In this document: positions 1-420 of the stretch, in pieces
Layout of the letters: each line of letters begins with the position of its first letter
Numbering within the stretch: the first letter of the stretch is position 1
From: a phage
Sequence record: MW984356.1
Strand: one strand, 5' to 3'
Length of the DNA: 420 nt
Program-made: the position numbers and the translations under genes
Notes under the pieces: model-generated
Databases searched by the model: none
The model's input: the letters and a program-made list of their open reading frames with translations, nothing else
Told to the model about the DNA's origin: nothing

Positions 1-45
1 GTTTTTTCGCAAAATTCTTTAGTGGTACCTTTCTATTCTCACTCT
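1..45 (+). other. C-terminal part of the pIII signal (leader) peptide, ending at the leader-peptidase cleavage site ...PFYSHS; residues upstream of the KpnI site differ from the canonical leader
   Basis: Seen in sequence: 22-45 encodes V V P F Y S H S (GTG GTA CCT TTC TAT TCT CAC TCT), identical to the engineered M13KE leader end as I recall it. Positions 4-21 encode F S Q N S L where the canonical vector has L F A I P L. Established knowledge: cleavage occurs after SHS. Confidence 0.8.
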
Positions 46-420
46 GAGCCTTGGGTGCATTTGAATTATTGGGTTAGTAGGGGTGGAGGTTCGGCCGAAA
101 CTGTTGAAAGTTGTTTAGCAAAATCCCATACAGAAAATTCATTTACTAACGTCTGGAAAGACGACAAAACTTTAGATCGTTACGCTAACTATGAGGGCTG
201 TCTGTGGAATGCTACAGGCGTTGTAGTTTGTACTGGTGACGAAACTCAGTGTTACGGTACATGGGTTCCTATTGGGCTTGCTATCCCTGAAAATGAGGGT
301 GGTGGCTCTGAGGGTGGCGGTTCTGAGGGTGGCGGTTCTGAGGGTGGCGGTACTAAACCTCCTGAGTACGGTGATACACCTATTCCGGGCTATACTTATA
401 TCAACCTCTCGACGCTGCCC
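1..420 (+). CDS. gIII: Partial CDS (both ends outside the window) of phage M13 gene III minor coat protein pIII, as an engineered N-terminal peptide-display fusion (leader - 12-mer - GGGS - mature pIII N1 - Gly linker - start of N2)
   Basis: Seen in sequence: frame +1 (codons at 1-3, 4-6, ...) has no stop codon over all 140 codons. From 94 it translates to AETVESCLAKSHTENSFTNVWKDDKTLDRYANYEGCLWNATGVVVCTGDETQCYGTWVPIGLAIPENEGGGSEGGGSEGGGSEGGGTKPPEYGDTPIPGYTYIN. Established knowledge: this is the N-terminus of mature M13 pIII, recognised from memory and not database-checked. Confidence 0.93.
24..29. other. KpnI/Acc65I recognition site (GGTACC), the 5' cloning site of the display vector
   Basis: Seen in sequence: GGTACC at 24-29 inside the leader codons GTG GTA CCT. 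Established knowledge: wild-type M13 has GTT GTT CCT here, so the site is an engineered vector feature. Confidence 0.85.
46..81 (+). other. Synthetic randomized library insert: 12 NNK codons encoding the displayed peptide EPWVHLNYWVSR
   Basis: Seen in sequence: codons GAG CCT TGG GTG CAT TTG AAT TAT TGG GTT AGT AGG; every third position is G or T, with no stop or amber codon. The insert sits exactly between the leader end (TCT at 43-45) and the GGGS spacer (82-93), the insertion point of Ph.D.-type libraries. Confidence 0.9.
82..93 (+). other. Engineered Gly-Gly-Gly-Ser spacer between the displayed peptide and mature pIII
   Basis: Seen in sequence: GGT GGA GGT TCG at 82-93, immediately followed by GCC GAA ACT (A-E-T, mature pIII residues 1-3). 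Established knowledge: this spacer is absent from wild-type M13 and characteristic of the M13KE display design. Confidence 0.88.
92..97. other. EagI recognition site (CGGCCG), the 3' cloning site of the display vector
   Basis: Seen in sequence: CGGCCG at 92-97, spanning the TCG GCC G junction of spacer and mature pIII. Established knowledge: the site is engineered; wild-type has TCC GCT GAA here. Confidence 0.85.
94..294 (+). other. pIII N1 domain (mature residues 1-67), which mediates TolA binding during infection; includes four Cys that form two disulfides
   Basis: Seen in sequence: translation AETVESCLAKSHTEN...WVPIGLAIPEN, with Cys codons at 112-114, 199-201, 229-231 and 250-252. Established knowledge: N1 domain boundaries and the C7-C36 / C46-C53 disulfide pairing of g3p. 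Confidence 0.85.
295..351 (+). repeat. Native glycine-rich linker G1 of pIII, encoded as a tandem 15-bp repeat (three full units plus a 12-bp partial), peptide EGGGSEGGGSEGGGSEGGG
   Basis: Seen in sequence: units gagggtggtggctct (295-309), gagggtggcggttct (310-324), gagggtggcggttct (325-339) and gagggtggcggt (340-351). All are in frame +1 and coding. Confidence 0.9.
352..420 (+). other. N-terminal part of the pIII N2 domain (F-pilus binding); the last ~15 nt deviate from canonical M13
   Basis: Seen in sequence: 352-405 translates TKPPEYGDTPIPGYTYIN, matching pIII. Codons 406-420 give L S T L P where canonical M13 has P L D G T..., consistent with a missing C in the C-run at 405-407 plus further mismatches. 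Confidence 0.75.

Follow-up and report, generated by a model that had tools for sequence, protein, structure and literature searches.

The closest described relatives of the DNA analysed here are gene III of the phages M13, f1 and fd, its version in the vector M13KE, and the clones of the commercial Ph.D.-12 library of New England Biolabs (NEB). In gene III of wild-type M13, f1 and fd, there is no insert, GGGS spacer, KpnI site or EagI site, and the leader joins AETVES directly. M13KE differs from wild-type M13 by the codon changes Val11 GTT>GTG, Val12 GTT>GTA, Ser18 TCC>TCG and Ala19 GCT>GCC, and these four were introduced so as to obtain sites for KpnI and EagI (Zygiel et al. 2017, PMC5405960, S1 Table, by NEB authors). 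The change Pro29Ser in M13KE was inherited from M13mp18/19 (WT1663 C>T), and the history of the vector is described in the same paper (PMC5405960). Ph.D.-12 clones of NEB share with the DNA studied here the leader end, the sites for KpnI and EagI, the 36-nt NNK cassette, the GGGS spacer and the Pro29Ser form of pIII.

Peptides displayed in such libraries have been compared across many selections. In the review of Vodnik et al. 2011 (PMC6259164), binders of plastic are described as typically rich in aromatic residues, with two Trp residues separated by 1–3 residues, and aromatic content by itself as not diagnostic of plastic binding. The same authors regard the Ph.D.-12 peptide APWHLSSQYSRT as probably target-unrelated; it was obtained in selections on heart tissue, on stem cells (embryonic and neural) and on apatite, and also on sulfated glycoprotein, phospholipase, ghrelin and beta2-glycoprotein I (PMC6259164). 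The peptide, which is widely used, is also named the “cardiac targeting peptide”, and its cell-entry mechanism is still described as unknown. The DNA of a clone encoding APWHLSSQYSRT is given in Zahid et al. 2010 (PMC2923200). A selection on rhesus embryonic stem cells yielded APWHLSSQYSRT, GYPHPWTLWHLN and LDVRPWYVTPLP together, and a PWX(L/V) motif was proposed (Lu et al. 2010, PMC2919412). Selections on four different targets yielded another peptide, QDVHLTQQSRYT (SAROTUP 2019, PMC6643146, Table 2). When clones of Ph.D. libraries grow fast, the displayed peptide is not the cause; the growth is due to alterations of the gene II 5'-UTR or of lacZ-alpha (PMC5405960).

We analysed a stretch of 420 nt from a phage sequence record (MW984356.1), which we refer to as the window. 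A megablast search of 50,697 phage records showed that gene III of M13, f1 and fd is 98–99% identical to the window, with alignments that cover bases 91–414 only. A more sensitive search with bases 1–130 gave the same limit, as the alignment with wild-type gene III again started at base 91. In wild-type M13, the leader end, ...TATTCTCACTCC, directly abuts GCTGAAACT; at this leader junction, the window contains 48 extra bases, which correspond to a 36-nt insert plus GGTGGAGGTTCG. Downstream of the junction, bases 94–403 are identical to those of resequenced wild-type M13, except for C96, which forms part of the EagI site, and T124, which gives Pro29Ser. The only further difference from reference M13 within 94–403 is C198; we consider this a lineage base because the resequenced wild-type isolate also has C198.

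The window contains every M13KE-specific change that falls within this stretch: G24 (WT1611 T>G), A27 (WT1614 T>A), TCG GCC at 91–96, and T124. The last of these corresponds to the M13mp19 marker Pro29Ser; the markers lacZ-alpha, in the intergenic region, and T5091 map beyond the 420 bases.

A protein search with the translation of the window retrieved two short NCBI proteins (P0002 and P0003), both annotated as “hypothetical protein, partial [Salmonella enterica]”. Their sequences read ...VVPFYSHS-SDGMGIRSTMKE-GGGSAETVESCLAKSH... and ...VVPFYSHS-ASASHFLPDSVR-GGGSAETVESCLAKSH..., and they are encoded by two 282-nt contigs (L003 and L004) of the NCBI assembly GCA_037480375.1, which is not the representative of a species. 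Both contigs are identical to the window at bases 18–45 and 82–193, so that within 18–193 only the 36-nt insert differs, and the inserts are unrelated to each other. Compared with the wild type and with these two independent clones, the window could be divided into the following features:

1–21, plus strand: start of the read, degraded, covering gene III leader codons (vector TTATTATTCGCAATTCCTTTA, window GTTTTTTCGCAAAATTCTTTA), as defined by alignment with the two clones of the same vector.
22–45, plus strand: end of the pIII signal peptide, VVPFYSHS, within the stretch identical to both contigs.
24–29, plus strand: engineered KpnI/Acc65I site, GGTACC, containing the M13KE-specific bases G24 and A27.
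31–45, plus strand: leader end TTCTATTCTCACTCT, by sequence match.
43–45, plus strand: Ser18 codon TCT, derived from the library oligonucleotide, within the end of the signal peptide.
46–81, plus strand: randomised insert of 12 NNK codons (36 nt), identified by translation, missing in wild-type M13 and replaced by other NNK 36-mers in the independent clones.
82–93, plus strand: GGGS spacer, GGT GGA GGT TCG, derived from the library oligonucleotide, the same in both contigs and missing in wild-type M13.
92–97, plus strand: engineered EagI site, CGGCCG, spanning the Ser codon of the spacer and Ala1 of mature pIII, in which TCG and GCC are the M13KE changes WT1632 and WT1635.
94–294, plus strand: N1 domain of mature pIII (AETVESCLAKSH...IPEN), detected as Pfam PF05357 Phage_Coat_A (E=3.7e-31), with limits that we take from established knowledge of pIII; it includes the M13mp-lineage change Pro29Ser at T124.
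110–131, minus strand: site of the -28 gIII sequencing primer, an exact match to its reverse complement.
178–197, minus strand: site of the -96 gIII sequencing primer, an exact match.
295–351, plus strand: natural glycine-rich linker of pIII between N1 and N2, (EGGGS)3 EGGG, identical to wild-type M13.
352–403, plus strand: start of pIII domain N2 (TKPPEYGDTPIPGYTYIN), identical to wild-type M13.
404–420, plus strand: end of the read, degraded, with one C lost from AACCCTC and bases 415–420 mismatched.

The two sequencing-primer sites were located with the primer sequences of the NEB manual. Both contigs part from the window after base 193, within the -96 primer site. In the linker, Tandem Repeats Finder detected a repeat with a period of 15 and 3.9 copies at 294–351. 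The two minus-strand ORFs at 66–167 and 74–142 were discarded: they lie within gene III and are products of a mechanical listing of ORFs.

On the plus strand, frame 1 stays open across all 420 bases, and it is both the gene III frame and the reading frame of the insert. Its translation reads VFSQNSLVVPFYSHS-EPWVHLNYWVSR-GGGS-AETVESCLAKSHTENSF...GGGSEGGGSEGGGSEGGGTKPPEYGDTPIPGYTYIN, followed by a garbled tail. Alignment with the two independent clones showed that, relative to the true vector sequence, bases 1–21 have lost two A's and one C and gained two extra A's. We infer that the differences at 1–21 and 404–420 are base-calling errors of a single-pass read, because a phage with a frameshift in its leader or pIII would not be viable and would not form plaques.

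The insert at bases 46–81 consists of the codons GAG CCT TGG GTG CAT TTG AAT TAT TGG GTT AGT AGG, which encode the 12-mer EPWVHLNYWVSR. An earlier sequence-only reading of this DNA had stated that all 12 codons obey the NNK rule, and this was borne out: the third base is G or T in 12 of 12 codons. The same holds for the inserts ASASHFLPDSVR and SDGMGIRSTMKE of the two contigs (24 of 24 codons NNK), which brings the K-ending insert codons of the three clones to 36/36. Neither a Cys codon nor an amber codon (TAG) is present in the 36-nt insert of the window. Besides two Trp, the peptide contains a single Tyr, His, Glu and Arg; its side chains carry a formal charge of 0, and the pI was calculated as 6.85. 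This agrees with its earlier description as a near-neutral peptide with two Trp, one Tyr and one His and lacking Cys.

That reading had also held an all-NNK stretch to be unlikely in natural coding DNA. The count of 12/12 stands, but the argument is weaker than was claimed. The gene III flanks are themselves rich in K at third positions (81/128 flanking codons, 63%), and the chance of 12 K-ending codons in a row is 0.4% with the local codon usage, and not the 0.02% expected with equal base use. With this background, the NNK pattern alone is modest evidence. It is the engineered flanks, rather than the NNK pattern, that decide the origin of the insert. Judging by the three clones, fixed engineered flanks around unrelated NNK 36-mers are the architecture of a library: compared with the two independent M13KE library clones, the flanks of the window are base-for-base identical and only the 12-residue peptide is different. 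The window is thus very likely a single-pass gene III read of one clone from an M13KE-based 12-mer library of the Ph.D.-12 design. We consider it a clone of this type and not natural DNA because the engineered flanks recur with different NNK inserts and the wild type aligns only from base 91. We observed nothing that speaks against a library clone. A custom library constructed in M13KE would look the same as Ph.D.-12 in this stretch.

Two alternatives, an insertion of natural origin in a natural variant of gene III and a peptide that was designed and then cloned into the vector, would have to account for the same arrangement. The 0.4% chance just mentioned means that the NNK pattern by itself leaves natural coding DNA possible. 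Against this, engineered sites, a spacer and vector-specific silent changes flank the insert exactly, the same flanks surround other NNK inserts in the independent clones, and no match was found in the natural sequence collections. The natural form was rejected, as it is ruled out by the flanks. As for a designed peptide, the codons AGG, AGT and TTG fit random NNK and would not be the usual choice of a designer for E. coli. Taken as a whole, we regard an origin as a natural variant or a designed insert as extremely improbable.

Exact searches for the 36-nt insert, and for the scaffold pattern carrying any insert of 15–45 nt, gave no match in viral, metagenome and representative-genome collections. 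BLAST searches with the junction region gave no match in plasmids or complete E. coli genomes, and in the phage collection they retrieved only wild-type gene III, from base 91 onward. Hence, a natural occurrence of the peptide between these flanks, which would have argued against a library clone, was looked for and not found in these collections. The 12-mer and its fragments of 6–7 residues do not occur in about 8 million full-text papers and preprints, a corpus that leaves aside mimotope and patent databases, and within that scope the earlier statement that the peptide is not recognised as a published binder agrees with our result. Among the 5-residue fragments, only YWVSR gave a full-text match, in a paper on the West Nile virus proteome, and this is a chance natural 5-mer. 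Within the full-text literature and sequence collections covered, EPWVHLNYWVSR appears to be unreported.

From the established design of the vector follows how the peptide would be displayed. The fusion protein would be made with the pIII signal peptide and exported, and leader peptidase would cleave after ...SHS. Mature pIII would then start with Glu-Pro-Trp-Val-His-Leu-Asn-Tyr-Trp-Val-Ser-Arg, followed by the GGGS tether and N1, and thereafter by the natural glycine-rich linker (295–351) and N2. In this way, a linear peptide with a free N-terminus would be present on every pIII copy at the virion tip. The proposal that a linear, Cys-free peptide with Glu as its first residue directly follows the leader cleavage site is supported by the flanks, i.e., the KpnI site (24–29), the leader end (31–45), the GGGS spacer (82–93), the EagI site (92–97) and the M13KE-specific bases. 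A second-position Pro is clearly no obstacle, as APWHLSSQYSRT, a heavily propagated clone, has one there too.

We then considered whether the composition of EPWVHLNYWVSR is unusual for an unselected clone. At least two Trp residues are present in 5.2% of random NNK 12-mers, and at least three residues of the W/Y/F type in 9.5%. The NNK information content of EPWVHLNYWVSR is 36.2 nats, compared with a mean of 34.8 ± 1.5 for random peptides, and 20% of random 12-mers reach at least this value. All of these values are within the range of unselected clones, and the idea that selection is visible in the composition of the peptide was therefore rejected. The label “aromatic-rich”, given to it in the sequence-only reading, is correct in that two Trp and one Tyr are present, but the enrichment is mild only.

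To screen EPWVHLNYWVSR for known target-unrelated signatures, we used 24 motifs taken from Vodnik et al. 2011 (PMC6259164, Table 1 and text), which comprise plastic, streptavidin, biotin, metal, protein A and Fc binders. Scanned by regular expression, with and without the vector flanks, the peptide matches none of the 24. This includes the plastic motifs WXXW, WHXW, WXXWXXXW, WHW, WXW, WXXXW and FHXXW. The scan for binders of other decoys likewise found none of HPQ, EPDW(F/Y), DVEAW(L/I), GD(F/W)XF, PWXWL and WXPPF(K/R), nor His runs, WT(I/L)XXHR, SS(I/L), RTY, QSYP and others. The PWVHL segment of EPWVHLNYWVSR differs from the decoy motif PWXWL at one fixed position. The peptide is also absent from the S3 Table of PMC5405960, Tables 1–2 of Vodnik 2011 and Table 2 of SAROTUP 2019, which are the tables covered by this comparison. 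The regions related to propagation (gene II 5'-UTR or promoter, and lacZ-alpha), at about 6589–6813 of M13KE, lie beyond the 420 bases.

A resemblance was found with APWHLSSQYSRT. When one single-residue gap is allowed, EPWVHLNYWVSR and APWHLSSQYSRT share 6/12 identities (P, W, H, L, S and R), the alignment being E-PW-V-HL-NYWV-SR for the window and A-PW---HL-SSQY-SR-T for APWHLSSQYSRT. Both peptides, which come from the same library type, have Pro-Trp at positions 2–3, then His-Leu, four residues and Ser-Arg. They differ in that PW and HL are separated by a Val in EPWVHLNYWVSR only, and in the middle residues, which are NYWV in EPWVHLNYWVSR and SSQY in APWHLSSQYSRT. Six identities with APWHLSSQYSRT are reached by 3.4e-4 of random NNK 12-mers, and the same closeness to any of 37 listed promiscuous or fast-growing 12-mers by 5.7e-3 (~0.6%), figures that have to be read with the knowledge that the similarity measures were picked after the resemblance had been noticed and that more than 37 peptides were informally compared. 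A plain local-alignment score against 46 listed peptides was not significant, with 71% of random 12-mers doing as well against at least one listed peptide; only the end-to-end identity count with one gap picked out APWHLSSQYSRT.

Other peptides share parts of this arrangement. Like EPWVHLNYWVSR, GYPHPWTLWHLN has PW and then HLN within three residues. The window peptide fits PW.{0,3}HL[SN], a pattern set by APWHLSSQYSRT and GYPHPWTLWHLN that 1.8e-5 of random NNK 12-mers fit, and HL.{3,4}SR, common to APWHLSSQYSRT and QDVHLTQQSRYT and fitted by 2.9e-4 of them; both patterns were defined in this analysis and are not an established family definition. The strict motif PWX(L/V) is not present in EPWVHLNYWVSR, which has PWVH. 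Lu et al. 2010 (PMC2919412) name five peptides; the possibility that EPWVHLNYWVSR is one of these was rejected, as it differs from all five.

The published DNA of the APWHLSSQYSRT clone allowed us to compare codons. Of the residues in common, Pro, Leu, Ser and Arg can be encoded by more than one NNK codon, and at 4/4 of these the codons differ between the window and the APWHLSSQYSRT clone. Because all choosable codons differ, the two clones are independent, and the window clone as a mutant, contaminant or carry-over of the APWHLSSQYSRT clone was rejected. If the similarity is meaningful, it would act at the peptide level.

Why this clone was recovered can be explained in several ways. The reading that we tentatively put forward is that EPWVHLNYWVSR may belong to a recurring class of Ph.D.-12 peptides typified by APWHLSSQYSRT, with PW and HL followed by four residues and SR, a class obtained from many unrelated targets. 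In that case, an aromatic/hydrophobic patch that behaves promiscuously or in a target-unrelated way would account for its recovery, and not a specific target. Against this class speak the choice of the measures after the fact, the local-alignment score that was not significant, the lack of a strict PWX(L/V) motif in EPWVHLNYWVSR, and its composition, which falls within the range of unselected clones. It is somewhat unlikely, although conceivable from the residues shared, that EPWVHLNYWVSR was selected independently and by convergence as a member of a PW-x(0-3)-HL-x(3-4)-SR class together with APWHLSSQYSRT, in which case the shared residues would be the determinant of the multi-target recovery or cell entry of APWHLSSQYSRT. 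That EPWVHLNYWVSR is a genuine, specific ligand of the intended panning target strikes us as rather doubtful. It matches 0/24 target-unrelated motifs, is absent from the tables of target-unrelated and fast-propagating peptides given above, and has an NNK information content slightly above average, but it is not reported in the searchable literature and resembles a peptide isolated on many unrelated targets. The binding target of EPWVHLNYWVSR cannot be read from the DNA, as the sequence-only reading had maintained, and its caution about specificity is supported by the resemblance to APWHLSSQYSRT.

The clone might instead be background, either an unselected member of the library (a naive-library quality check or carry-over) or a faster grower owing to a mutation elsewhere, with the peptide being incidental. 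Its composition is unremarkable for NNK, and fast growth in Ph.D. libraries stems from the gene II 5'-UTR or lacZ-alpha and not from the peptide. However, EPWVHLNYWVSR is not among the fast clones of the S3 Table of PMC5405960, and the resemblance to APWHLSSQYSRT would have to be a coincidence (~0.6% allowing for the 37 comparisons, with the measure chosen as stated above); we consider background an unlikely explanation. Binding to plastic (polystyrene) is very unlikely. Three W/Y residues and a His in 12 positions do recall plastic binders, which are typically aromatic-rich, but such an aromatic content is present in 5–10% of random clones and is not diagnostic alone. Moreover, no plastic motif was matched, Trp3 and Trp9 of EPWVHLNYWVSR have five residues between them compared with the typical 1–3, and the most similar known peptide, APWHLSSQYSRT, is reported not to bind polystyrene (PMC6259164). 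The suspicion of plastic binding that had been raised from the Trp/Tyr content is thus not supported. The more general warning that the clone might be target-unrelated holds by way of the resemblance to APWHLSSQYSRT, and not by way of a plastic motif.

For genome biology, the clone matters very little. The DNA of the window is vector-derived and synthetic, and should be flagged as such and not treated as a natural gene; likewise, the two library amplicons annotated as Salmonella “hypothetical proteins” should be flagged as vector-derived synthetic DNA. For users of phage display, the resemblance to APWHLSSQYSRT, if real, would mark EPWVHLNYWVSR as a probable promiscuous binder. If real, it would also narrow down the residues (PW, HL and SR) that may explain the recovery of APWHLSSQYSRT on many targets.

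The displayed peptide ends, next to the GGGS spacer, with Ser-Arg (window positions 76-81). PMC5405960 S3 Table contains nine Ph.D.-12 clones that propagate fast, and in two of these, TGITNWEVRTSR and KDTNIYDQRYSR, the same terminal pair precedes the spacer. Among random NNK 12-mers a terminal Ser-Arg is expected at a frequency of 0.9%. Arg is also the last residue of ASASHFLPDSVR, a clone present in a Salmonella assembly. The recurrence of this ending could reflect a bias of the library or of processing, or else it could be a coincidence.

T124 corresponds to Pro29Ser, a change of the M13mp18/19 lineage. Position 198 is C in the window and also in the resequenced wild-type isolate JX412914.1, and therefore the odd base at this position belongs to the reference NC_003287.2, which has another base, and not to the window. 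The repetitive and antisense features are the following.

294-351: tandem repeat with a period of 15 nt (3.9 copies, 95% identity), encoding (EGGGS)n
66-167, minus strand: short ORF of 33 aa, antisense to gene III
74-142, minus strand: short ORF of 22 aa, antisense to gene III

The repeat is the natural glycine-rich linker joining the N1 and N2 domains of pIII and is the same as in the wild type. Both minus-strand ORFs share bases with the insert and with the first part of mature pIII, and nothing suggests that they are genes.

Small insertions, deletions and mismatches with respect to the vector are present at both ends of the window (1-21 and 404-420), a pattern that is usual for a single Sanger read, whose ends are unreliable. 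They include a one-base deletion at position 404 that causes a frameshift, which, if real, would be lethal for pIII. The standard sequencing primer sites, at 110-131 (-28 gIII) and 178-197 (-96 gIII), both fall within the read, implying that a different primer was used or that the read is a longer amplicon.

Ph.D.-12 library amplicons were also found as two contigs of the Salmonella enterica assembly GCA_037480375.1 (NCBI).

L003 and L004, each 1-282: 282-nt contigs, JBBHBN010000065.1 and JBBHBN010000064.1

They carry the inserts ASASHFLPDSVR and SDGMGIRSTMKE, and in both contigs the match to the vector breaks off within the -96 primer site.

The protein search that used the window translation also returned, under P0001 and P0004, an engineered cysteine-free, His-tagged fd pIII N1-N2 fragment and, from a sequencing-run assembly, a truncated pIII in which most of N1 and N2 is missing. 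These are additional man-made pIII derivatives within public protein collections. As for L003 and L004, since the annotation of these library amplicons reads “hypothetical protein, partial [Salmonella enterica]”, they look like laboratory contamination that has reached a public assembly as well as protein databases.
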